Source: an uncultured delta proteobacterium (lineage in GTDB: Bacteria; Desulfobacterota; Binatia; UBA9968). From it: a DNA stretch of 64,000 nucleotides. Below the pieces are notes generated by a model. The model had not been told where the DNA came from, searched no databases, and saw nothing but the letters and a program-made list of their open reading frames with translations. Of this stretch, positions 9,532 through 62,257 are shown one piece after another. The position numbers were made by a program, and so were the translations under genes. Within the stretch, counting starts at the first letter, position 1; every line of letters begins with the position of its first letter. The stretch spans positions 32,001-96,000 of the forward strand of contig CAVYTU010000014.1 in the NCBI GenBank assembly GCA_963771465.1. The letters are read 5' to 3'.

Positions 9532-9687
9532 GGGATCTCCTATCTGCGAAAGATTGGCAGAAGATTTCGTCGCCCGTCTTAGCACCCGAGGCGGGCAGGG
9601 TCAATTAGTTTTCAATGGAAAACGATCGTTACTCACGGTGCCATTGATGCAGATTCATTCGGCGCTTTCTGTTATATGGGAGGGCAT

Positions 9688-10899
9688 ATGGAACGGAATC
9701 AATTTTCCCAGCTCGCCGCATGGATCACCGAGGCTGGACTCGCCGGACTGGATGAAAGCGCAACGCTGACCGGTTTTTGCGAGCGGCTTTTGGCGCTCGA
9801 CGTGGAGCTGGCGCGGGCGAATATTGTCATCGACACACTCCATCCGGTTTACCAAGGCCGTGCATTCACGTGGAAGCGCCAAACCCGAGGAACCGCACTT
9901 ACGGAATTCGGCCGCAGTGACCAGCGCGTCAACCTCTGGGAGCGCAGCCCGTTTTACAATCTGGAAGTTTCCGGTGAGACGCTCCTCAGGCGTCGCGTGA
10001 GCACTGCAACGGCTGTGGAGTTCCCGCTTTTCACAGACCTTCTCGTCGACGGTGTGACGGAATACCTCGCGATCGCCAACCGTTTTGCCGCTGAAGTGGT
10101 CATCGGCGACATGGATTGCGTTTATTCATCGTGGGCAACCGACGCGTCTGGGGGGTTCAAAGAGACCGACGTCGCCAACCTCACTCGGCTCGTGCCGCTG
10201 ATCGCGTTGACCATGAAAGCCGCTTCGTTGACCCGTATCGCCGGCACGCTGGTCGAAACTTATCTCGGCCGCGATGCCGGCCGCAAAGTCCTCGAAGGGC
10301 GCATCCAGCGCGGCGTCACCGATCGCATCGAAGCGGTCTTATGGTTCAGCGACCTGCGCAACTACACGCGCATCAGCGATTCGGCCGAACCCGAACTAAT
10401 CATTCCACTGCTCAACGAATACGCCGACGCCATCCTCTCAGCGATTCATGAGTCGGGCGGCGATGTTTTGAAATTGATGGGCGACGGCACCCTGGCTATT
10501 TTCACCGCGGACAATCGCGCCAGCGCGTGTCACGCCGCGCTCACCGCCGCAGCCGCGGCGCGCCAGTCCGTCGCGGTGGTCAACCATCGCCGCGCGGCGG
10601 AAAGCCTGCCGACGACTGATATGTACTTGGGGCTTCACGTCGGTGAAGTTTTTTACGGTAACATCGGCAGCAAAGACCGCCTCGATTTCACCGTCGTCGG
10701 TCCCGCCGTCAATGAAGTGAGCCGCATCGCCGGTCTGTGCCGCTCCGTCGATCAACCTCTGCTGATCTCCTCCGCGTTCGCGAGCGCCATCGACGAACCG
10801 AAGAATCTGCTCGTCTCGGTCGGCCGCTACGCACTGCGCGGCGTCGGCCGCCCGCAGGATCTCTACACGCTCGATCCGGAACCGGACGTGCCGGATTGA
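9688..10899 (+). CDS. Class III adenylate/guanylate cyclase with N-terminal GAF-like region
   Basis: FSDLRNYT, LKLMGDG, RLDFTVVGPAVNEVSRI. Confidence 0.9.
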   Translation: MERNQFSQLAAWITEAGLAGLDESATLTGFCERLLALDVELARANIVIDTLHPVYQGRAFTWKRQTRGTALTEFGRSDQRVNLWERSPFYNLEVSGETLLRRRVSTATAVEFPLFTDLLVDGVTEYLAIANRFAAEVVIGDMDCVYSSWATDASGGFKETDVANLTRLVPLIALTMKAASLTRIAGTLVETYLGRDAGRKVLEGRIQRGVTDRIEAVLWFSDLRNYTRISDSAEPELIIPLLNEYADAILSAIHESGGDVLKLMGDGTLAIFTADNRASACHAALTAAAAARQSVAVVNHRRAAESLPTTDMYLGLHVGEVFYGNIGSKDRLDFTVVGPAVNEVSRIAGLCRSVDQPLLISSAFASAIDEPKNLLVSVGRYALRGVGRPQDLYTLDPEPDVPD

Positions 10900-10958
10900 T
10901 TAACCTCGTAGTTAAGTTAGCGGGGGATTAGATCGAGCGATGAGAATTTTTCCAAATC

Positions 10959-11039
10959 CGCCACCCCCGAATGTTTTTATCGGGGGTCCAGACTCGGAGC
11001 CGCCTGGATTCCCGCTTAAAGCATGCGGGAATGACGGAC
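10959..11039. repeat. REP-like palindromic element
   Basis: acccccga...tcgggggt hairpin followed by ctggattcccgcttaaagcatgcgggaatgac hairpin between convergent genes. Confidence 0.7.
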
Positions 11040-11102
11040 TTCGATGAAGGAATCGATTCTGCGGGTAAGTTTCGAGAATCGAAACTCGCAGCGATAGAAA
11101 GC

Positions 11103-12824
11103 TCAGTGGCTGCCGCAGATCACATTGAGCACCGCTTGGCGCTTTTCCTCTTTGACCACTTTGAGCGCGCGCCTGAGCGCCGGCAAAACTTCTGCCGGAT
11201 CGTCGACCATCTCGCCATAACCGCCGTGCGCTTCGACGACTTTTTCATAGCGCGGCGACGGTGCTAATTCGGTCAGCGGAAAATTTCCCGTACTCACCGC
11301 CCAGCCGTCCGGCATGACTTGTTGCGTCGCCGCCTTGGTGGAGTGCCAGATGGCGTTGTTGCAGATAATCGTGAGCATAGGAAGGTCATAGGCGTGAGAA
11401 ACGAAGTGGCAGGCGGTCGGATTGTTGAACATATAAGTGCCATCGCCCGCGGTAACGATCACAGTTTTTTCCGGCCGCGCCAGCTTCATACCCAAGCCGC
11501 CGCCGATACCCCAGCCGAGTCCGCCCGCGGGTGAGCCGCCGAAATAGCTCGCCGGCTCGCTCAAGTTGAGCACTTCGTTGCCGACGCCATGATCGCTGAG
11601 CACGAGGGTGTCTTGGTCTCGCACCTGTTCGACGCAGTGCGCCAACCAAGTATGGCTGATCGGCCTTTCATGGCTCGCGTGCTCGACTCTTTGTTTCAAC
11701 CGCTCGCGGTAGCGCTTGCGCTCGGCGCGAATTTTCTCGGCGCGCTCGCTCAACAGTTTTTCATTTCGCGGCCCGCTCATTAATTCCTGCGCGAGCAATT
11801 CGAGCGCAAGCTTGGGATCGCCGCCGATGGAAATATCTTTAGGAAAGTTGCGGATCGGAATGGCGCCGTAATTCGGGTCGCGGGCGATTTGAATGACCTT
11901 GCCGTTTTCCGGCGGCTTGCCTTGAAGCGGGTACCAAGGCACGTCGGACTCGACCACAACGACCACATCCGCGTCTTTGATATAAGGCGCCGAGCTCACA
12001 CCGAGGTAAAAATCATGGGTGTTGGGCATGCTCACGAACGGACTCGCCGGCGTCACCACAGGTGCGACCAAAGCTTCGGCGAACGAAACCATCGCGCTCA
12101 CCGCGGTAGGATCCGAACCCAAGCGGCCGGTGATAATCAGCGGATTAGTCGCGCCGCGCAAGATCTCCGCTGTGCGCTTGATCGACGCTGCGCTCGGTTG
12201 CGATGGTTCGACCTGAGCCTTGCGGTTCGGATGAATGGTGATGGAATCCATCTTCTGCGCCAGCACTTCGCGCGGCAACGTTAGATAAACCGGGCCTTGC
12301 GGCGTGCCGAGCGCCATCTCCAGCGCGCGATCGACGACAGTCTCGACTTGCTCGCCGTTGCGCAACTCGTAATCCCACCGAGTAAACTCGCGCAGCAGAC
12401 TTCCTTGATCGAACGACTCCTGCCCCCAATGGATGAAATTGCTCCGGCTCCCGACAAAGCCTTCCTCAGTTAACGGTGTCCTACCGGCGGAAAAAATCAT
12501 CGGCACATTGAGACGCGAAGCGTTCATGATCGCCGCCGATGCGTTGCCGGTGCCAACGATCACATGCACCATCACCACCTGCGGCTCGCCGGTAAGCATC
12601 GCATAACCCTGCGCCATGCTGACAGCGACAAACTCATGCGGCACCGTGATCGGCATCGGATGCAGTTTTTTCTCCGCGCCAAACTTCGCCAAAGCATCGA
12701 TAACCGGCCCAAAGTCGGTGCCGCTATTGCCAAAGAAATATTTAATCCCGCGCGCGCGCAGGACTTCTAAGTAAGCTTGTCCAACGGTCTCGACCTGAAC
12801 GGTTACGGTTTTGTTCGTGTCCAT
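11103..12824 (-). CDS. Thiamine-diphosphate-dependent enzyme (acetolactate synthase/benzoylformate decarboxylase-like)
   Basis: FGNSGTDF, PHEFVAV, GDGTYMFNN ThDP motif. Confidence 0.9.
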   Translation of the reverse strand: MDTNKTVTVQVETVGQAYLEVLRARGIKYFFGNSGTDFGPVIDALAKFGAEKKLHPMPITVPHEFVAVSMAQGYAMLTGEPQVVMVHVIVGTGNASAAIMNASRLNVPMIFSAGRTPLTEEGFVGSRSNFIHWGQESFDQGSLLREFTRWDYELRNGEQVETVVDRALEMALGTPQGPVYLTLPREVLAQKMDSITIHPNRKAQVEPSQPSAASIKRTAEILRGATNPLIITGRLGSDPTAVSAMVSFAEALVAPVVTPASPFVSMPNTHDFYLGVSSAPYIKDADVVVVVESDVPWYPLQGKPPENGKVIQIARDPNYGAIPIRNFPKDISIGGDPKLALELLAQELMSGPRNEKLLSERAEKIRAERKRYRERLKQRVEHASHERPISHTWLAHCVEQVRDQDTLVLSDHGVGNEVLNLSEPASYFGGSPAGGLGWGIGGGLGMKLARPEKTVIVTAGDGTYMFNNPTACHFVSHAYDLPMLTIICNNAIWHSTKAATQQVMPDGWAVSTGNFPLTELAPSPRYEKVVEAHGGYGEMVDDPAEVLPALRRALKVVKEEKRQAVLNVICGSH

Positions 12825-14711: not shown

Positions 14712-15236
14712 CTACAAGACCGCTTCGGCCTGAAACACCACCGGCAGCCAAGTCACCGGCGTCGAATCCTGCACGCAACGGAAACCTTTCACTTCATTTT
14801 TCCAATCCGGCAAGTAACGGTGTGAGCAGTCGCATGTGTTAGCCGGACCACAGAGAGCTTTGTAGGTTTGCCCGCCGATATCGACGTCGGTCGAAGTCCA
14901 CTCCCAAATATCGCCGCGCTTTTTAAGCTTGCCGCCTTCGCATGTGGACTTCCATTCATCGACGGTCGGCAACCGGCGTCCGACGAAGCGGCAGTAGGCG
15001 TTCACATCATGAAAGTTGACGAGCACGACCGGCTCGTTTTCTTTGCCGGCAGGAAAGCTACCGTTGACCCAATATTCCGGCGCTGCATGACGCGTCGCCG
15101 CAACAAACTTCAGATACTCGCCGTTGGTGACTTCGCTGTGATCAAGCGCTGCCGCGGCGAGAAAATACATCGGCAAGAAGAACGCCCAACAACAATCTAA
15201 TGAGCTCGAACGCTTTGCTTTCAAATTCCTCACCAT
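14712..15236 (-). CDS. Short formylglycine-generating-enzyme (SUMF1/FGE-sulfatase) fold protein
   Basis: EVTNGEY, PVVLVNFHDVNAYC, RRLPTVDEW, IWEWT, GFRC. Confidence 0.75.
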   Translation of the reverse strand: MVRNLKAKRSSSLDCCWAFFLPMYFLAAAALDHSEVTNGEYLKFVAATRHAAPEYWVNGSFPAGKENEPVVLVNFHDVNAYCRFVGRRLPTVDEWKSTCEGGKLKKRGDIWEWTSTDVDIGGQTYKALCGPANTCDCSHRYLPDWKNEVKGFRCVQDSTPVTWLPVVFQAEAVL

Positions 15237-15238
15237 AA

Positions 15239-16204
15239 CTACTTGAGCGCTTGTTGCAGCAACGTAAAATCGGTGAGCTGCGACGGCGCGACGCCTTTGA
15301 TGCCGGCTTCCGCCAGCATCGTGGTAACGAGCGAATTCAACATCGACTCTTCCACCATGCCGTTTCTCGTGTAGTTGTTGATCGCCATCTGATAAATCTC
15401 GGCCGCCATCTCGCGATCGAGCTTTAGCCAACTCATCATCACCTGGTGCGTGCCTTCGGGATTCTCCCGCATAAAGCGCAGCGATTGGAGCAGCGCCTTG
15501 ATCACGCGCCGCACTTGATCGGGGTGATCGCGCAGTTTTGCGCTGTTGACGCCGAGCCCGCCGGCGAGCAGGCCGTGATACTCGGCGGCGTTGATCAATA
15601 GCTTGAGGCCCATCTTCTTGGCTCGATACGCCTCGCCGTAATCCATCATCGCGCTATCGATGGAACCGGAGAGCATCGCACCGATGCGCGTGCCGGTATC
15701 GACGATGCGATAGATTATGTCGCGATCCGGATCCAAACCGTTTTGCTTGAGAATAAACTTGGCCGAAATCTGCTGCGAACCGAGGAGTCCCGGGACACCC
15801 ATCGATTTTCCCTTGAGCTCGCTTACCGACTTGATCTCCTGGCGCACGACCAATCCCCAAAAGGGTTTGGTCGTGCCGAGAAACACGATGCGCACCGGCA
15901 ATCCTCTCGCCGCCGAGACAAACGTCGAGCCAGCTCTGAGTGTGTAGTCGATATTGCCGCTGGCGAGCGCGGCGCGATCGACCTCGGTGCGCGTAAGCAG
16001 CAGTTTGACATCGAGGTTCTGCTCGCGAAAAAAACCTCGTTGGCGCGCTACCTCGGCGGGCAAAAACGTTATGCTCGGGCCGGCGAAAGAAATCAGCGCT
16101 TCTTCTAACGCCAAGGCCGGCTGCGCCGAGACGAGCAAGCACATTACTTGGAGACTGAATAGTATTGCAGCCAGGAGTCGGAAAGTACGTGCGATGCCAA
16201 GCAT
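15239..16204 (-). CDS. ABC substrate-binding protein, NMT1/SsuA-like
   Basis: GFFREQNLDV, ELKGKSMGV, GLDPDRDI. Confidence 0.85.
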   Translation of the reverse strand: MLGIARTFRLLAAILFSLQVMCLLVSAQPALALEEALISFAGPSITFLPAEVARQRGFFREQNLDVKLLLTRTEVDRAALASGNIDYTLRAGSTFVSAARGLPVRIVFLGTTKPFWGLVVRQEIKSVSELKGKSMGVPGLLGSQQISAKFILKQNGLDPDRDIIYRIVDTGTRIGAMLSGSIDSAMMDYGEAYRAKKMGLKLLINAAEYHGLLAGGLGVNSAKLRDHPDQVRRVIKALLQSLRFMRENPEGTHQVMMSWLKLDREMAAEIYQMAINNYTRNGMVEESMLNSLVTTMLAEAGIKGVAPSQLTDFTLLQQALK

Positions 16205-47895: not shown

Positions 47896-50800
47896 ATGGC
47901 CAACGGCAACTACACTGAGACGCTCCGACAGCCTGGCTTTCTCGCCTTTTTCTGGACCCAGTTCTTGGGTGCGTTCAACGATAATTTTTTGAAGATCGTC
48001 GTCTCGTTCGTCGCCTTGAATCTGGCCACCAGCGCGAGCGCGAACTACGTCGAGCTGATCGCGTTTCTGTTCATTCTTCCGTCGGCGCTATTTTCCGGTT
48101 ACGCCGGCCATCTCGCCGACGTCTACAGCAAGCGGACTATTTTAGTCACGGTGAAGCTGTGGGAAATCGCCATCATGGTTTTTGCGCTCACGGCGTTTTT
48201 CTTTGGTCAGATTCAACTCATGTTGGGTGCAGTGTTCTTGATGGGGCTGCACGCCGCATTCTTCAGTCCGGCCAAGTACGGCATCCTGCCGGAGATGCTG
48301 CCGGAAAAAGATTTGTCGCGCGGTAATGGACTTCTGGAAATGAGCACCTTCATGGCGATCATTTTGGGCACGTCGCTCGGCAGCGCGATTTTTTCCGTCT
48401 GGAAATATAACTTGCCGCTGATCGGCCTGGTGATGATCGCCATCGCGGTCTTGGGCTATTGGACCAGCTTGGGAATCTCCCATGTTCCACCATCAGGCGC
48501 GGCGAAACTATTGCGGCTCAATCCGTTCAGCGAGATCGCCGACGGTCTGCGCCGTTTGCGTTCCGAGCGTCCGCTTTGGCTCACCGTGATCGGCATCTCT
48601 TATTTTTGGTTTCTCGGCGCGCTGGTCCAAATCAACATACTTTTCTTCGGCAAAGAACTGCTCCACCTGGACGAGTTTCACATCGGCCTGCTCGGCACCT
48701 TCCTCGCCATCGGCATCGGCATCGGCAGTCTCGCCGCCGGCCGGCTGTCGGGCGATCATATCGAATTGGGCCTGGTGCCGCTCGGATCAGTTGCCATGGG
48801 TCTCTGTCTAGCCTTGGTCGCATGGTCGGCACCGTCTTATCCGGCCACGGCACTCGCGCTCGTGCTTCTTGGTTTTTCCGCTGGACTCTTCGCTGTGCCC
48901 TTGAATGCGTTGTTGCAGCAGCGCAGCGGCAAGGAAGAAAAAGGCCAGCTGATCGCGACCAATAATTTCATGAACACCATCGGCATCGCACTCGCAGCGG
49001 CAACCCACTGGCTGCTTAAATCGCCGTTACAATTGTCGCCGGATACGATCATTTTGCTGATTGGCTTAATCACCCTCGGCGGCACTGTGATCATTCTCTA
49101 TCTGCTACCCGACTATTTCGTGCGCTTTGTCCTCTGGCTTATTACCCACACCGTCTATCGCATTCGAGTGGTCGGCGACGACAAGATCCCGCTTCACGGC
49201 CCCGCGCTTTTGATATCGAATCACGTCTCCTTCGTCGACGCGATCTTGATCGGCGCCTCGCTACCGCGCTTCGTCCGTTTCATGCTGCACCGGGAGTACT
49301 ATGATCGCAAATCGCTCAATTGGTTTTTCCGCCTGATGCGCTCGATCCCGGTTTCGGCCACCAATCGGCGCGATATCATCGAGTCGATCAAGCGCGCGCG
49401 CAACGAATTGGAAAAAGGCCACGCCGTTTGCATCTTCGCCGAGGGCGCGATCAGCCGCACCGGTCGCTTGCTGCCACTCAAACGGGGCTTTGAAAGGATC
49501 GTCGATGGCACCAACGTGCCGATCGTGCCGGTGCACTTGGACCAGCTATGGGGCAGCATATTTAGTTTCAAGAACGGCCGCTTCTTTTGGAAATGGCCGG
49601 GCAAGGCGCCCTATCCCGTGACGGTTTCATTTGGCGCGGCCTTGCCGCCGACCGCCACCGTGAATCAAGTGCGCAACGCAATTTTAGAATTGGAAAGCGA
49701 AGCGGTGGAATACCGGCGCAGCGCCAGCGATCTGTTGCACACCAAATTCGTCGCAATGGCCAAGCGCCGTTGGCGCTCGTTCTGCATGGCCGATACCACG
49801 GGCACGGAACTGACCTATGGAAAAACTCTCATCGCCAGCCTCTTGTTCGCGCGCTGGGTGCGGACCCATTGCCCCAATCAGGCCATGGTCGGCGTGATGC
49901 TTCCGGCCACGGTCGGCGGCTCGCTGGTCAATATCGCAATCTTGTTCGCCGGCAAAGTGCCGGTCAATTTGAATTTCACTTCCGGCGCCGAGGCGATGAC
50001 CGCGGCCATCGCCCAATGCAAGATCAAGACGATCATCACTTCCGAGGCTTTCTTAAGTAAAGCCAATCTCGAAACCATGGAAGGCATGGTTTTCGTCGAA
50101 CAGATTCGCAGCTCGTTTACCGAAGCTCAGAAATTGACGACCGCCGCGAAAGCCTTTCTGATGCCGGCGCTCTGGTTGAACCGCCGCGCCGTCAAACAGC
50201 AACGTCCCCACGATCTGGCGACGATCATTTTTTCCAGCGGCAGCACGGGAACGCCTAAAGGCGTCATGCTGTCACACCACAACATTATTTCGAACATTGA
50301 AGGGATACGCCAGGTGATCCACTTCACGCCGAGCGATCGGATCATGGGCGTATTGCCGCTGTTTCATTCCTTTGGCTTTACCGCCACGCTCTGGTTGCCG
50401 CTGCTCGCCGGCTTTGGCGCCGTTTATCATCCCAATCCGACGGACGCCAAGACCATCGGCGAGACCGTGCAGAAATATCGAGCGACTTTGCTGATCAGCA
50501 CGCCGACTTTTTTTGTCAGCTATTGGCGCCGCTGCAGCAAGGAAGAATTTGCCAGCTTGCGCTATGTCATCGCCGGCGCGGAAAAACTGCGCGAGCAAAT
50601 CGCCAAAGGCTTTCAAGAAAAATTTGGCCTGACCATTCTCGAAGGCTACGGCTGTACCGAACTGGCGCCGGTGGTCGCGGTCAACACGCCCGATGTTACC
50701 GACGGCAAGGAAAAACAGGTCGGCCACAAGCCCGGCACCGTCGGCCACCCGATTCCCGGGGTCGCCGCCAAAGTCATCGATCCCGACACCGGACAGCCGC

Positions 50801-51288
50801 TGGGGCCTGGCGAAGAAGGACTCTTATTGATCAAAGGCCCCAATGTCATGCTCGGCTATTTGAACCAGGGAAGTCTCACCGACCAGGTCATGCGGCGCGG
50901 CTGGTACGTCACCGGAGATATCGTGGCGATCGATGAAGACGGCTTTATCAAGATCACCGATCGCCTATCACGCTTCAGCAAGATCGGCGGCGAAATGGTA
51001 CCGCACATGAAAGTCGAAGAGGCGATCAACGAGGTGCTTGGCAGCGCCGTATCCGTGGTCACCGCCCTGCCCGACCCGCAGCGCGGCGAGAAACTCGTCG
51101 CCTTTTACACCCAGAACGGTTTCAGTCGAGACGTCCTGTGGAGCAAGCTCAATCAAACCGAGCTGCCCAAACTATGGATCCCCAAACGCGAAAATATCCA
51201 CGCCATCGACGCCATCCCGATCCTCGGCTCGGGCAAGGCCGACCTCAAAAAAGTCAAAGCGATGGCGCTGGAACGCGCGGCGAGCTAA
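47896..51288 (+). CDS. aas: Trifunctional LplT-like MFS + acyltransferase + acyl-ACP synthetase
   Basis: QFLGAFNDN MFS start; NHVSFVD and FAEG PlsC motifs; FSSGSTGTPKG, EGYGCTE, TGD adenylation motifs. Confidence 0.9.
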   Translation: MANGNYTETLRQPGFLAFFWTQFLGAFNDNFLKIVVSFVALNLATSASANYVELIAFLFILPSALFSGYAGHLADVYSKRTILVTVKLWEIAIMVFALTAFFFGQIQLMLGAVFLMGLHAAFFSPAKYGILPEMLPEKDLSRGNGLLEMSTFMAIILGTSLGSAIFSVWKYNLPLIGLVMIAIAVLGYWTSLGISHVPPSGAAKLLRLNPFSEIADGLRRLRSERPLWLTVIGISYFWFLGALVQINILFFGKELLHLDEFHIGLLGTFLAIGIGIGSLAAGRLSGDHIELGLVPLGSVAMGLCLALVAWSAPSYPATALALVLLGFSAGLFAVPLNALLQQRSGKEEKGQLIATNNFMNTIGIALAAATHWLLKSPLQLSPDTIILLIGLITLGGTVIILYLLPDYFVRFVLWLITHTVYRIRVVGDDKIPLHGPALLISNHVSFVDAILIGASLPRFVRFMLHREYYDRKSLNWFFRLMRSIPVSATNRRDIIESIKRARNELEKGHAVCIFAEGAISRTGRLLPLKRGFERIVDGTNVPIVPVHLDQLWGSIFSFKNGRFFWKWPGKAPYPVTVSFGAALPPTATVNQVRNAILELESEAVEYRRSASDLLHTKFVAMAKRRWRSFCMADTTGTELTYGKTLIASLLFARWVRTHCPNQAMVGVMLPATVGGSLVNIAILFAGKVPVNLNFTSGAEAMTAAIAQCKIKTIITSEAFLSKANLETMEGMVFVEQIRSSFTEAQKLTTAAKAFLMPALWLNRRAVKQQRPHDLATIIFSSGSTGTPKGVMLSHHNIISNIEGIRQVIHFTPSDRIMGVLPLFHSFGFTATLWLPLLAGFGAVYHPNPTDAKTIGETVQKYRATLLISTPTFFVSYWRRCSKEEFASLRYVIAGAEKLREQIAKGFQEKFGLTILEGYGCTELAPVVAVNTPDVTDGKEKQVGHKPGTVGHPIPGVAAKVIDPDTGQPLGPGEEGLLLIKGPNVMLGYLNQGSLTDQVMRRGWYVTGDIVAIDEDGFIKITDRLSRFSKIGGEMVPHMKVEEAINEVLGSAVSVVTALPDPQRGEKLVAFYTQNGFSRDVLWSKLNQTELPKLWIPKRENIHAIDAIPILGSGKADLKKVKAMALERAAS

Positions 51289-51500
51289 CTCCGATTAAGC
51301 TGTGTTGATCGAGGTGTGACCCTGGAGGAACGAAGGCAGCGGCGCGAATGTTTCATTTTGTGCTCCAAGCTCGGCACGATGCTTGACCTTTGCGCTGCTG
51401 ATCTCATGAGCAACTCGCCGCGCGTGCATCTTCAAGGCACACTGCTTTGCCTTCGTTCCGGAAGGGTTGCGCCTCGATCGAAGTTTCACACAAATACGGG
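51289..51500 (+). mobile_element. MITE-like structured element, copy 1
   Basis: Flanked by CTAA/CTAA; internal ~32-bp inverted repeat gatcgaggtgtgaccct..ggaacgaaggca / tgccttcgttcc..agggttgcgcctcgatc. Confidence 0.75.
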
Positions 51501-51559
51501 CTAACACCGACAATGAATTTCATGCCAAGCGACCACCGCGGAGCGTAGGAGCTAAGCCA

Positions 51560-53420
51560 ATGATATCGACAGCGGAAATCCGCGCCGTATATGAACACGC
51601 AACGACCGAGTTTATCGAGGCGCGTGAGTTCCAAGTGCTGGTTTCCGGCCGAGCGTCGGGAGATTTTGTCCGTCAGTTTTTACTCAACGTTTTTCGCACG
51701 CATTATCTGTCGGCCCATATCGTCGCGCTTTGCTTCGCGGCGCTGCCGTCCAATGCGGCGGCGCTGTTGAAAGAAAATCTCCTCGAAGAAATGGGCCACT
51801 CCGCAGACGAGCCACCCCATTCGGCGTTGTTGCTCAAGCTCGCTGAAGGTATCGGCTGTTCGCCGCAGGAAATTGACAAACTCATCGACGACGCGCGCCG
51901 CCGGGTTGCGGTCTTTTGTGCCACTCGAGTGCCGTTGGCCACCCTGCGTGAAATCTGTCTCGCCGTGCTGCTGGAAACGCTCTCCTTTGAGTTCATGCTG
52001 TCGCGCTGCTCGGGACAAATCGCCACGGCTTTACGCGAGCACTACGGCGTCGCCAAAGCGGCGCTCAAGTGGTTTGAGCTTCACTCCGAAGTGGACATTC
52101 GCCACGCCGAGGAAGGGCTGACGGTGATCGAAGACTACCTCGCGTTTCATCAGATCGGTGATCCGACCTTCGACCTCATCCAGCGTGCGGCTCTTGGCAA
52201 AGTCTTCAGCAAGCATTATTTCCCGGCCGAGGAGCGCGCTTTTGCTTTGCCCGTCGAAAGCAAGAACGCGTCACGCATCGAGGCGATCACCATCTATAAA
52301 CTGAAAATTCCATTTCATCAGGCCTTTCATCACGCCACCCAGCGCCGCGAGGAAAGCGACGCAGTGATCGTGCGGATCAAAGACGCCAGCGGGCAGATCG
52401 GTTACGGCGAAGCGCTGCCGCGTCCCTACGTCACCGGCGAAACCACCGCATCGATGATCGCTCATCTGCGCGGACGGCTGGCGCCGCAGATTTTCGCTCC
52501 CACATGGGTCGCGGGTTGGGCGACCTTCGAGCTTCTCGACTCCTGTCGCGCCGAGTGGACGCGAAGTCATGACAGCGCGGTCAGCGCTTGGAACGCGGCG
52601 TTTTGCGCCGTCGAATTGGCATTGCTCGACTGGAGTTTGAAAAGTCTCAGCCACTTCGCTGTCCGCATTCCTGCCACCGGCACGAAACCAAGTCATCTAC
52701 AGCGGCGTCATTTCTTCCGACAATCCAGCGGAAGCAGCGGCGTTGGCCAAGCGAATGGTCAAATTTGGTTTGCGTCAACTCAAGATCAAAGTCGGCACAT
52801 CGGACGACTACGACCGGGTCGCCGCGGTGCGCCAAGCCGTAGGGCCGGAAGTCGCATTGCGCGCCGATGCCAATGGCGCCTGGAGCGCGGCGCAAGCGGT
52901 CGAGGAATTGCACCGGCTCAAGCCTTTTAACTTACAAGTGATCGAACAACCGGTGCCGCCAGGCGATCTCGCTGGAATGAGAAAAGTCCGAGCGGAAACC
53001 GGCCTGCCGGTGATGGCCGACGAGTCGCTCGTGACCATCGAGCAAGCGCGCCATCTGATCGACGCGCGCGCCTGCGACTATTTCAACATACGCCTGTCCA
53101 AGTGCGGCGGCGTCACCGGCAGCCTGGCGATCGCCAAACTCGCCGCGCAAGCCGGCATCAAAATCCAGGTCGGCGCACAGGTCGGCGAGACGGCGATCCT
53201 TTCCGCCGCCGGCAGGACCTTTGCCGCTCATTTGCCGACGCTCGCGTTCGCCGAGGGTTCCTTCGGCACCTGGTTATTAAGCGAAGACATCGCCTTCGAA
53301 GACGTGAGCTTCGGTTACGCCGGCGTCGCGCCACTGCTCGCAAGCCGCGGCCTCAGCGTGACGGTCAAAGACGAAACCTTGGAACGGCTTGCCGTCGAAA
53401 AGATCGAGCTCAGTCGCTAG
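51560..53420 (+). CDS. Heme-oxygenase-like diiron (CADD/PqqC/TenA-like) domain fused to an enolase-superfamily (MLE/epimerase-like) domain; +1 frameshift at ~52641-52653
   Basis: ENLLEEMG..PPH, FEF, WFELHSEVDIRH; GYGEALPRPYVTGET; after the shift YSGVIS, KIKVG, DAN, EQP, ADES, NIRLSKCGG, GAQVGET. Confidence 0.8.
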
Positions 53421-53673
53421 CCCGGACTATTCATGCCACGAGGAAACCTGACGACACTCTGTTATCGAGGTGCGACCCCAAAGAACCAAAACGTCGGACG
53501 AGGGCAGGGGCGCGAATGTTTCATTTTGTGCTCGGCACTCGGTACGATGTTTAACCTTTTCCCTGCTGATCTCATTAGCAAGTTGTCCCGCGTGCATCTT
53601 CAAGGCACAGCTGCTTTGCCTTCGTTCCGGAGGGGTTGCACCTCGATCGTAGTTTTGCCGCGAATAATTCGCG
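53421..53673 (+). mobile_element. MITE-like structured element, copy 2
   Basis: ctag[cccggactattca...gcgaataattcgcg]ctag; same core as copy 1. Confidence 0.8.
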
Positions 53674-53683
53674 CTAGGCGGTT

Positions 53684-55372
53684 ATGACGTTGGCCCACCG
53701 CGCCGCGCTCTTGCTGAGCGGCCTTCAATGGAATCGCTGGGAGCGCCAAACACGCGATCCGGCTGCCGCGCAAAAACAGCTACTGCGAGAAATCGTTCAG
53801 CGCAATCAATCCACCGCCTTCGGCAGAGATCACGGCTTTAGCTCGATCAAAAGCGTCAAAGATTTCCGCCGCCAGGTGGCGATCGGCGATTATGAAAGTT
53901 TTCGGCCTTATATCGAGCGCGCCAAGCAAGGTGAAAAAGCAGTGCTGACCAGCGAGCCGATACTGATGTTCACCATGACCAGCGGCAGCACCGGCGAGCC
54001 GAAGTTGATCCCCGTAACCGAATCGACGCGTGCGACCCATACCAGACTGACGCGACTTTGGTACAGCCGGGCGTTCCAAGATCATCCGGGGTCGGGTGCG
54101 GGAAAAGTTTTCGGGCTGGTGGGCCGAATGGTCGAAGGGCACACCGCCGGTGGTATCCCCTACGGTGCGGCGTCGGGCCTGATTTATCAATCCAGCCCGG
54201 CTTGGATCAAACGCACGCACGCGCTGCCTTATGAAATCGCCGAGATCAAAGATTTCCAAACCAAGTATTACGCCGCGATGCGGGTCGCCATCGAACAGGA
54301 TGTCACCTTCCTGGGCACGCCCAATCCGAGCACGATACTTCGGCTCGTCGAAACTGCCGATCATTTTCGCGCGGAGATTATCAAAGACATACACGACGGC
54401 AGCTTGTCGAATCGTATTGAATTGGCGGGGGATGTTCGACTGGCGTTGGCGAAATATTTATCGCCGAACCGACAGCGTGCGCAACAATTGGAACAATCGC
54501 TGGCGGGGACCGGACGGCTTCGTCCCATCGACTACTGGCCCCATTTGCGGCTCATCGGTTGCTGGAAAGGTGGCAGCGTCGGCGTTCGTCTCAAAGAATT
54601 GGTCGCTTGGTTCGGCAACCAAGTGCCGGCACGTGACCTCGGCTACATGGCCAGTGAGGCGCAGATGTCGCTGCCGGTGAGCGACAGCGGTTCGGCTGGT
54701 ATTTTAGCGGTCGATGGGAATTTTTATGAGTTCATCCCAGAGTCGGAAATCGCCAGCGCCCATGCCATAGCGCTTGGCTGCGACGAGCTTGAATCAGGCG
54801 GCGTGTATTATCCGATCCTCACCACCGCCGCCGGTCTCTATCGCTACGACATCAACGACGTGATCCGTGTCACCGGCTTTCACGGCAAAACTCCGTTGGT
54901 GGAATTCCTCCGCAAAGGTCGCGATGTCACCAACATCACCGGCGAAAAATTGCACGTCAATCACGTGATCCAGGCGATGGAACAGGCTCAACGCGCCACG
55001 GGCGCCGTGGTGCGGCACTTTCGCGCTTTCGCGGACATGGAAAATTCCCGCTATGCCTTCATGGTTGAGTGCGACGGCGCTAAGGCCAACGACGCAACAC
55101 TCAGCCATTTACTCGCCGAACTGGACGCGTGCCTGTTCGAGATCAATGTCGAATATGCCGATAAACGAAAATCGGCGCGACTCCAAGCGCCCGTACTCTG
55201 CGTCATGAAACACGGCTGGTATGAGCGCAAGGCCGCTGTTGCGCTCCACGCTGGCGCGCGCGACGTCCAGTTCAAAGCGCAGCTGTTGAGCGTCATACCG
55301 GAAGATCCGAGCGAGATCATGGCGCTGTTACAAAATTCGAACTCTGCTGATATCTCCAAAAGACACGATTGA
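53684..55372 (+). CDS. GH3-family (auxin-responsive GH3-like) acyl-adenylate/amide ligase
   Basis: TSGSTGEPKLIP, GYMASE, FYEFIP, GLYRYDINDVI, GEKL. Confidence 0.9.
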   Translation: MTLAHRAALLLSGLQWNRWERQTRDPAAAQKQLLREIVQRNQSTAFGRDHGFSSIKSVKDFRRQVAIGDYESFRPYIERAKQGEKAVLTSEPILMFTMTSGSTGEPKLIPVTESTRATHTRLTRLWYSRAFQDHPGSGAGKVFGLVGRMVEGHTAGGIPYGAASGLIYQSSPAWIKRTHALPYEIAEIKDFQTKYYAAMRVAIEQDVTFLGTPNPSTILRLVETADHFRAEIIKDIHDGSLSNRIELAGDVRLALAKYLSPNRQRAQQLEQSLAGTGRLRPIDYWPHLRLIGCWKGGSVGVRLKELVAWFGNQVPARDLGYMASEAQMSLPVSDSGSAGILAVDGNFYEFIPESEIASAHAIALGCDELESGGVYYPILTTAAGLYRYDINDVIRVTGFHGKTPLVEFLRKGRDVTNITGEKLHVNHVIQAMEQAQRATGAVVRHFRAFADMENSRYAFMVECDGAKANDATLSHLLAELDACLFEINVEYADKRKSARLQAPVLCVMKHGWYERKAAVALHAGARDVQFKAQLLSVIPEDPSEIMALLQNSNSADISKRHD

Positions 55373-55797
55373 ATCCGTCCATGCACGGTCCCGTCCTCGC
55401 CCTGCTGACACTCCTCTTCGCGCTCCGTGTTTTGGGTCAAGCACTCGTCGCGTTTGTCGGCGTTGCTTGGTTGCCAGTCATGGAACAATGGTTTTCCGGA
55501 CTGATTCCCTACCCAACACTTCTCATGATCCAACTCCTCATGCTCATTCTCATGGTGAAAATCACCGGCGAAATCTGGCGCGGCGTAGGCACATTCGCCA
55601 TCCGACGGCCGCACTGGTCACAGTTTTTAATAAGATTTAGCGCCGTCTACGCCGGCGCCATGGTCTTGCGCTATGTTTTGACGATGATTTTACATCCGGA
55701 GAAGCGCTGGCTCGGGGATGTCATCCCAATCATTTTTCACTTCGTGCTGGCAGGGTTCATATTCGTGCTCGGCCACTATCATCGACGCGCACGCTGA
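55369..55797 (+). CDS. Hypothetical 4-TM membrane protein
   Basis: Four hydrophobic segments; WFSGLIPYP and IPIIFH motifs; overlaps the GH3 stop. Confidence 0.7.
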   Translation: MNPSMHGPVLALLTLLFALRVLGQALVAFVGVAWLPVMEQWFSGLIPYPTLLMIQLLMLILMVKITGEIWRGVGTFAIRRPHWSQFLIRFSAVYAGAMVLRYVLTMILHPEKRWLGDVIPIIFHFVLAGFIFVLGHYHRRAR

Positions 55798-55848
55798 TTG
55801 CATGGGCATACATCGCGTGTTAGAAACTTGCTAGTTTTGGAGGATGAA

Positions 55849-56829
55849 ATGGATTTCCAGCAACTGGCGGACAAAGCACTCAACGGCATACTTCCCGAGC
55901 GGGATGAATTGAAAGCAATTCTCAACGCGCCGGACGAACAACTGCCGGAGATATTGAGCGCGGCCTTTAGAGTGCGCCATCACTATTACGGCAAGCGCGT
56001 GCAAATTCATGTCTTGCAGAATGCCAAGAGCGGCTTGTGTCCGGAGGACTGCCACTATTGCTCGCAATCCTCGGTCTCCGAAGCGCCCGTCGAGAAATAT
56101 CCTTTCATGTCCAAAGAGAAATTGGTGGAAAACGCCAGACAGGCCAAAGCCGCCGGCGCCGTGCGCTTTTGCATCGTCAACAGCGGCCGCGGCCCGACCC
56201 ATAAAGAAATCGACGAGATCGCCGACGCCGTGCGCGAGATCAGATCACAAACCGGGATGAATGTTTGCTGCTCGCTCGGCTTGATGAACGAAGACAAGAC
56301 GCAGAAACTAGCGGCCGCCGGCGTCGGCAGGGTCAATCACAATTTGAACACCAGCCGGGAGCGCCACGCCGAGATCGTCACCACTCACACCTACGACGAC
56401 CGCTTGGCGACGATTGAAAGCGTCAAGAGCGCCGGAATCGGCACTTGTTCTGGTGGGATTATCGGCATGGGCGAGAGCGACGACGACATTATCAACCTGG
56501 CGATGACGTTGCGCGCCATGGATATCGACTCGATCCCAGTGAATTTTCTGAACTCGATCCCCAAGACGCCGTTCGAACAAAAGCGCGAACTCACCCCGCA
56601 GCGCTGTTTGAAAACCCTCTGCCTGTTTCGTTTCGTCAATCCAGGCAAAGAAATCCGCGTCGCCGGCGGCCGTGAAGTCAATCTGCGATCGCTGCAGCCG
56701 CTGAGCCTATATCCGGCGAACTCAATGTTCGTCAACGGATATCTCACGACGCCCGGCCAAGACGCTAGCGACGCCCATCAAATGATCCGCGACTTGGGCT
56801 TCGAGCTCGATCAGCCGGCGGCGATCTAG
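55849..56829 (+). CDS. bioB: Biotin synthase
   Basis: CPEDCHYCSQS radical-SAM motif, NHNLNT, CSGGIIGMGE, PVNFL, IRVAGGRE, YLTT. Confidence 0.95.
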   Translation: MDFQQLADKALNGILPERDELKAILNAPDEQLPEILSAAFRVRHHYYGKRVQIHVLQNAKSGLCPEDCHYCSQSSVSEAPVEKYPFMSKEKLVENARQAKAAGAVRFCIVNSGRGPTHKEIDEIADAVREIRSQTGMNVCCSLGLMNEDKTQKLAAAGVGRVNHNLNTSRERHAEIVTTHTYDDRLATIESVKSAGIGTCSGGIIGMGESDDDIINLAMTLRAMDIDSIPVNFLNSIPKTPFEQKRELTPQRCLKTLCLFRFVNPGKEIRVAGGREVNLRSLQPLSLYPANSMFVNGYLTTPGQDASDAHQMIRDLGFELDQPAAI

Positions 56830-62017: not shown

Positions 62018-62257
62018 CCGGATGCATTCAGGCTACGGGGAAACCTGACGACACGGGTTGATCGAGGTGTGACCCTGGAGGAACGAAGGCACCGGCGCGA
62101 ATGTTTCATTTTGAGCTCAGCGCTGGGCACGATCTTTGACCCTTTCGCCGCTGATCCATTCGCAAGTCGCCCGCATGCAATCTTCAAGGCACAACTGCTT
62201 TGCCTTCGTTCCGGAAGGGTTGCACCTCGATCAACGTTTTACCGCGCATAATCCGGG
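62018..62257 (+). mobile_element. MITE-like structured element, copy 3
   Basis: ccggatgcattca...gcgcataatccggg followed by ctag (stop of the neighbouring gene); same core. Confidence 0.75.

Follow-up and report, generated by a model that had tools for sequence, protein, structure and literature searches.

A conserved pairing of a heme-oxygenase-like domain with an enolase-superfamily domain beside a GH3-family ligase gene, found as a one-base-broken copy in an uncultured Binatia bacterium

In a 64,000-nt stretch of contig CAVYTU010000014.1 from an uncultured Binatia bacterium (the whole stretch is hereafter called the window), two overlapping plus-strand open reading frames (ORFs), 51467..52930 and 52743..53420, lie in frames +1 apart, as seen from the ORF listing and translation. 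Are they two parts of one enzyme, and what would such an enzyme do? The initial annotation had read them as a hidden fusion of about 619 aa, in which a heme-oxygenase-like two-metal (HDO) domain precedes an enolase-superfamily domain. The analysis reported here indicated that the window carries a one-base-broken copy of a real, conserved two-domain enzyme of ~619 aa. With a probability of roughly 60%, the HDO/enolase unit acts with the product of a downstream GH3-family ligase gene by a one-base and O2-dependent mechanism, the chemistry, substrate and step order being those that we infer below.

The probable start of the gene is ATG 51560, which is preceded by GGAG and fits the N-termini of the relatives. 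The first frame encodes the HDO domain (51560..52270, plus strand as are all parts of the gene), followed by a linker and the enolase-superfamily N-terminal capping domain (52271..52648), the latter recognized in the HDO frame by weak MR_MLE_N and MenC_N matches. In this frame, the Pfam family PF14518 (Haem_oxygenas_2, 'iron-containing redox enzyme') matched aa 38–195 with 63 bits against a cut-off of 28.9, while in the second frame MR_MLE_C matched with 179.9 bits against a cut-off of 29.4, the enolase-superfamily TIM-barrel domain (MLE subgroup) spanning 52650..53420 in the +1 frame with its stop codon at 53418–20. The N-terminal pieces of the NCBIfam AEE and OSBS models likewise matched the first frame, and the barrel parts matched the second. 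The second frame is open already from 52641, directly after the TGA at 52638–40, and tblastn with an intact relative (P0001, 633 aa) aligned residues 13–377 in one frame (74%) and residues 380–633 in the next (78%), bracketing the break between 52641 and 52656. Removal of one base within 52641–52653, as the initial annotation had proposed, joins the two ORFs; environmental contigs identify that base as A 52649, and the repaired protein counts 363 + 256 = 619 codons with the junction ...LKSL-ATSLSAFLPP..., the modal length of the family being 619–623 aa. Because PF14518 and the capping domain, matched there by residues 13–377 of P0001, share one frame, the fusion is independent of any repair, as had been stated at the outset.

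The frame break was then compared with environmental DNA, for which Logan contigs from four public runs, each of a different study, were placed on 52200–53100. A 448-nt contig of run X1 (52276–52724) showed zero mismatches and one letter missing at 52648/9, and a 486-nt contig of run X3 (52255–52741) showed one mismatch and the same missing letter. The loose ends of contigs from run X5 and from the RNA-library run X15 read ...AAAGTCTC|GCCACTTCGC..., i.e., without A 52649. The form of the window, with A 52649, was found in none of the contigs placed from the four runs. Since near-identical environmental DNA has the intact gene, the break either arose in the assembly as an error or is a recent lesion confined to one lineage.

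Among proteins of 348–1108 aa, the HDO part of P0001 as query retrieved at least 273 at E ≤ 1e-3. Among the 120 matches listed, nearly all were intact fusions of 617–640 aa carrying PF14518 and PF13378, named by NCBI 'enolase C-terminal domain-like protein' or 'iron-containing redox enzyme family protein' and coming mostly from Candidatus Binatia; PF02746 is on record for many relatives. The fusion is thus hidden in the window by the break, at the 619 aa expected, but it is not hidden in general. Within the genus of the window, 13 of 25 genomes, its own included, gave a match at E ≤ 1e-100 and 3 more gave fragments, while the best match in 16 genomes of two other families was no better than 1.8e-7. 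The twelve loci of the genus comprised seven that are intact in one frame (e.g., L008 of genome G005), one that runs into GH3, and four, including the window, that are broken at four different places. A scan of GTDB genomes added fused copies in metagenome-assembled genomes (MAGs) of Dehalococcoidia at 44% identity and a stand-alone enolase homologue in Neiella marina. When 1.84 billion representatives were scanned by HMMER with the HDO domain alone, just 121 matches were obtained at E ≤ 1e-3, consisting of ~620-aa fusions plus many stand-alone proteins of 224–243 aa at 30–52% identity. As judged from these matches, HDO domains of this type form a small, distinct HDO clade.

To what extent the two parts belong together was assessed on 20 genomic and 80 metagenomic loci. 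Of these 100, 60 had the HDO and enolase parts in one open frame and 32 had them as separate genes in the same order, most of the latter with an ATGA stop/start overlap, by which the split genes would be translationally coupled. One of the 32 (L073, 63% identity) may be a broken fusion instead of a natural split. The other loci were ambiguous (two), ended too early (five) or had no HDO gene (one, that of Neiella). For the separate HDO and enolase proteins of a split locus (L104), docking was predicted with an ipSAE of 0.83, compared with 0.35 for the best of three controls; in the calibration of this score, 58 of 80 solved complexes reach the mark, as do 2 of 110 mismatched pairs, figures that are rough only, our own alignments having been used. 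The runs agreed in at least 95% of contacts, and the predicted local distance difference test (pLDDT) scores of the partners were at least 89. The predicted interface comprises enolase residues 12–28, 157–166 and 337–353 and HDO residues 118–131 and 202–235, of which enolase residues 12–28 belong to the N-terminal capping domain, the domain that covers the active site in the MLE subgroup. We know of no comparable HDO–enolase complex. The Rosetta-stone pattern of split and fused forms, the gene order and the predicted docking together argue for the HDO and enolase parts forming one functional unit.

The HDO domain was aligned by HMMER to CADD/CT610 of Chlamydia trachomatis (1rcw, E 1.8e-4; also 8va9; deposited as 4-aminobenzoate synthase), the nearest solved sequence (E 2e-4). 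In this alignment, the stretches LLEE...PPH, SFEF and H-SEV-D-IR-H paired with the ligand stretches of CADD, following the metal-ligand numbering that we take to apply to 1rcw, and all six ligands aligned on the same seven-helix fold. The codons in question are E76/E77 (51785–90), H87 (51818–20), E144 (51989–91), H175 (52082–84), D179 (52094–96) and H182 (52103–05), all on the plus strand. Among 93 sequences, i.e., the window plus 92 fused and split loci, E76, E77 and H87 were kept in 92 and E144, H175, D179 and H182 in all 93; the full ligand set E..H, E, H-x3-D-x2-H claimed initially therefore aligns with the CADD site and is retained across relatives. H48, S51 and E139 are further invariants of the same set and specific to the clade. 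An AF2 model of the domain, built with 41 relatives, was all-helical with a pLDDT of 94.3 and a predicted template modelling score (pTM) of 0.91, and a Foldseek search against PDB placed CADD at the top (E 1.6e-6, template modelling (TM) score 0.67–0.75), with the N-oxygenase HrmI, the fatty-acid decarboxylase UndA, TenA, PqqC, FlcD, RohS and true heme oxygenases including HmuO at lower ranks. The marks of the HDO superfamily were thus found together: a PF14518 score over the cut-off, a heme-oxygenase-like helical fold, and six ligands on three core helices. With its complete six-residue site, the HDO domain would activate O2. As the fold matches include CADD entries with Fe/Mn and Mn/Mn, the term 'diiron' is better read as 'two-metal', and by analogy with CADD the metal pair may be Fe/Mn rather than Fe/Fe.

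The likeness to CADD has its limits. The HDO domain of the window shares only 18–19% identity with it, has H48, S51 and E139 of its own, is fused or coupled to an enolase part, and carries Ile at the position that aligns with Lys152 of CADD. A CADD-like role in folate or 4-aminobenzoate synthesis was rejected on account of this Ile and of a TIGR04305 score of 32.3 bits against a cut-off of 200. UndA, HrmI, RohS and FlcD have the same fold at TM 0.5–0.71 and 13–16% identity, and no fusion to the enolase superfamily was seen in their entries. These four are, partly by their entry titles, O2-activating two-metal enzymes that act on fatty acids or amino acids.

The best PDB matches of the enolase part were dipeptide epimerases (E 6e-34 to 3e-31). 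In alignments to 3q45, 3jva and 1jpm, KIKVG (K-I-K codons 52782–90) paired with K160-x-K162 of 1jpm, and RADAN, IEQP and MADES (ligand codons 52866–68, 52944–46 and 53019–21) paired with the Mg ligands D191, E219 and D244 in the 1jpm numbering of the alignment. Like the dipeptide epimerases and the N-acylamino-acid racemase/OSBS enzymes, the enolase part has the barrel profile of the MLE subgroup, a capping domain, a carboxylate Mg ligand at each of the ends of beta3, beta4 and beta5, and the KxK at the end of beta2, the KxK and D/E/D residues aligning exactly. It differs from them at beta6, where FNIRLSKCGG pairs with FNLKLSK of 3q45 and INIKLMK of 1jpm and places an Arg (53091–93) at K268, and in the QxGxQVGE and EGSxG motifs, which are conserved and specific to the clade. 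Across 75 sequences the KxK lysines and the D, E and D Mg ligands were invariant, and the beta6 residue was Arg in 73, Leu in one and a gap in one, so that the Arg of NIRLSK, at the position where two-base epimerases have Lys, is real. The full-length model of P0001 (pLDDT 87.5, pTM 0.82) showed a helical domain, a strand-rich capping domain and an alternating barrel. None of the NCBIfam models of the named isofunctional families reached its curated cut-off: AEE scored 124.8 against 334.95, NSAR/OSBS 107.3 against 400, DgcA 95.8 against 288, and MLE 87.4 against 500. The N-acetyl-D-Glu racemase model was among the best NCBIfam matches.

Downstream lies a GH3-family acyl acid amido synthetase, an ATP-dependent amide-forming ligase (53684..55372, plus strand; Pfam GH3, GH3_M and GH3_C). 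Its nearest PDB entry is JAR1 (3e-38 over residues 18–551), and the GH3 nucleotide motifs TSGSTGEPK, YMASE and GLYRYDIND are recognizable by eye. Of the 76 loci that offered 300 nt of room or more, 74 had a GH3 gene starting no farther than 520 nt downstream on the same strand; the exceptions were L018, with 331 nt of room only, and L106, with a broken enolase gene. The gap between enolase and GH3 is 263 nt in the window and 4–20 nt in most relatives. Twenty-three distant loci had only the HDO, enolase and GH3 genes in common, and at the Neiella marina J221 locus (L034, 5015–11595) the order is Ser/Thr kinase, alpha/beta-hydrolase (Hydrolase_4), enolase homologue, GH3 and PP2C, the stand-alone enolase homologue having the beta6 Arg as well. 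GH3 as the near-invariable neighbour is the decisive context of the gene, and the initial annotation overlooked it.

What bacterial GH3 enzymes do is best illustrated by OlsH. In the accessible part of the paper describing it, the GH3-like OlsH of Singulisphaera acidiphila converts free fatty acid, ornithine and ATP to N-acyl ornithine with a preference for non-hydroxylated fatty acids, the alpha/beta-hydrolase OlsI O-acylates the N-acyl ornithine, and other bacterial GH3 homologues are suggested by the authors to make other N-acyl amino acids (PMC12493201). As far as that part of the paper goes, the operon resembles the cassette of the window in that a GH3-like ligase stands with partner enzymes, the three GH3 motifs it quotes being those recognized by eye in the window, and the alpha/beta-hydrolase gene of Neiella marina sits where OlsI does in the OlsH operon. 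No OlsI-like alpha/beta-hydrolase was found among the Pfam-scanned neighbours of the window's cassette. The accessible parts of PMC12493201 and of a 2026 review (PMC12971839) make no mention of an enolase, racemase or HDO partner. Literature searches for HDO with the enolase superfamily or for HDO–mandelate racemase fusions returned no relevant paper, the initial annotation likewise having known of no characterized protein of this architecture, and searches for GH3 with the enolase superfamily returned only papers on glycoside-hydrolase 'GH3'. In the main text available of a sequence similarity network survey of about 9,600 HDOs, fusion is mentioned only for the SznF cluster, and its supplementary cluster tables might list the present one (PMC7848743). 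The conserved physical HDO–enolase pairing is thus undescribed in the literature searched.

In the mechanism that we propose, GH3 would join an amino acid to a carboxylic acid that it has first adenylated, the acid being most likely a fatty acid. The enolase domain would hold the free alpha-carboxylate of the conjugate, or of the acid, on Mg2+, and its single Lys base would take the alpha-proton while the Arg would stabilize the enolate; such a one-base step would permit elimination, hydration or one-sided proton transfer, not two-base racemization. The HDO domain would hydroxylate or desaturate the same molecule in an O2-dependent step. The beta6 Lys serves as the second base in epimerases and mainly as a cationic stabilizer in OSBS and MLE, and given these roles the conserved Arg fits one-base chemistry (elimination, hydration or cycloisomerization) better than racemization. 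The coupled oxidation and one-base elimination or isomerization that the initial annotation had suggested would be compatible with all observations, and the split and fused forms and the predicted HDO–enolase interface lend it indirect support. As to the substrate, an N-acyl amino acid or lipid, perhaps a membrane lipid, is our tentative preference, at a little under even odds, any one particular reaction being much less probable. OlsH, the only characterized bacterial GH3 by the accessible account, makes N-acyl ornithine (PMC12493201), for which reason an N-acyl amino acid/fatty acid cassette is preferred; and the cassette is further favoured because dipeptide epimerases and N-acetyl-D-Glu racemase use N-acylated amino acids with a free alpha-carboxylate, i.e., the product type of GH3. 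A variant in which free fatty acid is the shared substrate would be equally compatible.

Several features around the three genes bear on this reading or accompany it. Upstream of the gene, 47896..51288 (plus strand) encodes a 1130-aa protein composed of an MFS transporter, a PlsC-type acyltransferase and an AMP-binding ligase (Pfam MFS_1, Acyltransferase and AMP-binding), LplT-Aas-like by domain content. Among the 78 loci that had 700 nt of room or more, 37 carry this gene upstream, and every one of the 37 is Binatia-like; together with an LCM-type methyltransferase in 4 of the 23 distant loci and an MMPL transporter in L053 it makes up the lipid hints of the neighbourhood. A 142-aa hydrophobic protein without a Pfam family (55369..55797, plus strand) overlaps the GH3 stop. 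Many Binatia-like loci have a homologue of it downstream of GH3, and so do 6 of the 23 distant loci, where it is a small membrane protein. Two copies of a dispersed repeat resembling a miniature inverted-repeat transposable element (MITE) bracket the HDO–enolase gene in the same orientation. Copy 1, found by repeat search with 32-nt terminal inverted repeats, lies at 51307..51486, and copy 2 lies in the gap that separates the enolase stop from GH3, at 53475..53655 (53498–53609 at 86% and 53611–53655 at 93%, the left end extrapolated from the 2168-nt copy spacing). A third copy is located at ~62057–62242, 8.6 kb downstream. The repeat is ~190 nt long and has 42 matches in the genome, about 36 of them near full length, at 73–88% identity.

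Some observations in individual lineages stand on their own. The LCM-family (carboxyl) methyltransferase gene follows GH3 in four distant split-type loci (L053, at 9560–12687, L059, L079 and L088), with the MMPL transporter next in L053. Directly upstream and on the same strand in seven Dehalococcoidia loci (L025–L030 and L036), a conserved protein of ~780 aa with two ZnuA-type metal-binding stretches is encoded, and this neighbour may reflect metal supply or mere synteny; the Dehalococcoidia flanks hold ZnuA, PNPase and lysine-pathway genes. A BioB-like radical-SAM/BATS gene (55798–56829) after the small membrane protein is syntenic in Binatia-like loci at 81–95% identity, and, being far better conserved than the cassette, it is suggested to be a housekeeping gene and not a pathway member. 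In L012 and L021, from genome G020 of the genus and from a public MAG, the fusion minus its last ~14 residues and its stop runs in frame into GH3, giving a frame of 946–996 aa. As other genes of the few-contig MAG locus are also split, this read-through is probably indel noise and not a true triple fusion. The loci L021, L022, L033 and L035, from few-contig public MAGs, each contain several genes that are split (Aas-like, GH3, sulfatase), in some cases at T-runs, and frame breaks in such assemblies are often artefacts.

How far the break itself compromises the gene depends on whether A 52649 is real. If it is, the reading frame ends within the enolase domain and the gene is a pseudogene at a decaying locus of this lineage, which we take to be a serious candidate that nevertheless falls short of an even chance. 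The assembly contains the base, and in another assembly that differs slightly a 108.7-kb contig carries a 456-aa ORF (P0020) that is three residues off the window's ORF and has an identical out-of-frame tail. The MITE-like repeats on either side, the widened gap to GH3, three other broken genomes of the genus with different break places, and a deletion in another strain that joins the enolase domain to GH3 would all suit decay, as would the low indel noise of the window. Indeed, no second split gene was found among 10 other ORFs of the window scanned with Pfam, suspected overlapping pairs included, so the break is not general assembly noise of the window; an FGE-sulfatase-like ORF (14712–15653, minus strand) was partial by Pfam yet has a normal C-terminus and was dropped as a second frameshift, and other overlapping ORF pairs proved to be distinct genes. 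However, the base is missing from four runs of four studies, including the X1 contig that is otherwise identical over 448 nt; the flanking genes are intact; and related loci of few-contig MAGs are rich in split genes, some at homopolymers, as is typical of indel noise. Moreover, R239L of P0020 corresponds to a 52275 G>T variant, and the X3 contig has the same T allele without the extra base, so that a lesion must sit on both alleles while an intact T copy circulates elsewhere. The evidence therefore leans somewhat to a shared consensus artefact. A systematic error at the GTCTC before the extra A found no support as its source, as the window has 84 GTCTC/GAGAC sites but one break; GTCTC occurred in only 2 of 13 break-region stretches inspected in related loci, some breaks lying at T-runs. 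A programmed +1 ribosomal frameshift, for which the break common to two assemblies might speak, was ruled out: all 60 fused relatives are single-frame, near-identical contigs lack the base, the other broken copies of the genus break at residues 311, 350 and 525, and no Rfam element was found in 51200–53800.

Granting the intact protein, two other accounts of its function compete with a one-base, O2-dependent unit acting on N-acyl amino acids or lipids. The enolase domain could be an ordinary two-base dipeptide or N-acylamino-acid racemase merely tethered to an unrelated oxygenase. The epimerases as best PDB matches would fit this, but it is made very improbable by the Arg at beta6 in 73 of 75 sequences, by the distance of the AEE, NSAR/OSBS, DgcA and MLE models from their cut-offs, and by the conserved order, the split/fused pattern and the predicted interface, which point to a functional unit. 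Rather unlikely, though to be taken seriously, is a cassette for the synthesis or breakdown of a small molecule other than a lipid. The HDO domain might, for instance, modify an amino acid that the enolase domain would epimerize or dehydrate, and GH3 would then attach it to an acid, aromatic or otherwise, to give a signal, siderophore-like or antibiotic product. HrmI entries with the product N6-hydroxy-L-lysine are among the fold matches, and several other characterized HDOs act on free amino acids (N-oxygenases and C–C cleaving HDOs). The plant GH3 enzymes conjugate hormones and benzoates by the names of the PDB matches, just three genes are conserved across phyla, and a Ser/Thr kinase and a PP2C phosphatase flank the Neiella locus. 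On the other hand, lipid-handling neighbours recur (PlsC/Aas-like, MMPL, alpha/beta-hydrolase), and nonribosomal peptide synthetase, polyketide synthase and other typical tailoring genes were not seen in the flanks examined. The only characterized bacterial GH3, by the accessible part of its description, uses fatty acids (PMC12493201).

The reading of a one-base, O2-dependent unit with GH3, and above all its lipid version, is itself weakened by several points. The capping domain matched MR_MLE_N (aa 248–359 of the first frame) with only 16.3 bits, under the cut-off of 22, and the NCBIfam enolase models lie so far under their cut-offs that no substrate can be transferred from them. The GH3 of the window is only distantly related to the plant enzymes, as the JAR1 match indicates, and GH3 enzymes take many non-lipid acids. 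The lipid link would rest mainly on the OlsH analogy and on lineage-restricted neighbours, while beyond the three genes the neighbourhood is not conserved, the Dehalococcoidia flanks being housekeeping genes. Two MITE-like insertions flank the gene, and the break shared with P0020 may mark a real lesion in the lineage. Finally, P0035 (623 aa, on two metagenome contigs) consists of the HDO and capping domains plus 31 residues from the start of the barrel, joined directly to GH3 residues 225–340, and then runs out of frame, a deletion variant from which it follows that the cassette locus decays in some strains.

Both HDO enzymes and the enolase superfamily serve as models of how new chemistry evolves from old scaffolds, and the pairing described here comes with a systematic catalytic Lys-to-Arg swap and an obligatory GH3 ligase partner. 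The 'hidden' state of the gene belongs to the assembly or lineage of the window, not to the family. The boldest form of our proposal, which we regard as improbable but worth stating, is an obligate complex of the HDO domain and the one-base Arg enolase, fused or not, working with GH3 and giving modified N-acyl amino acids or aminolipids by a hitherto unknown route; the HDO domain would, for example, hydroxylate or desaturate beside the carboxylate, and the enolase-type domain would then dehydrate or hydrate the product. If true, dehydro- or hydroxy-acyl amino acid lipids would be made from free fatty acids without coenzyme A or acyl carrier protein intermediates, the enzyme would be the first tandem catalyst of an oxidase and the enolase superfamily, and the MLE branch would gain a new functional subgroup. 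In any case, the three genes make up a testable three-enzyme module of soil Binatia, Dehalococcoidia and, in part, a cultivable marine gammaproteobacterium. Should N-acyl amino acids be its substrates, the module would enlarge the GH3 route to aminolipids that was recently found in bacteria, and could help to explain the hydroxylation or desaturation of such lipids or signals.

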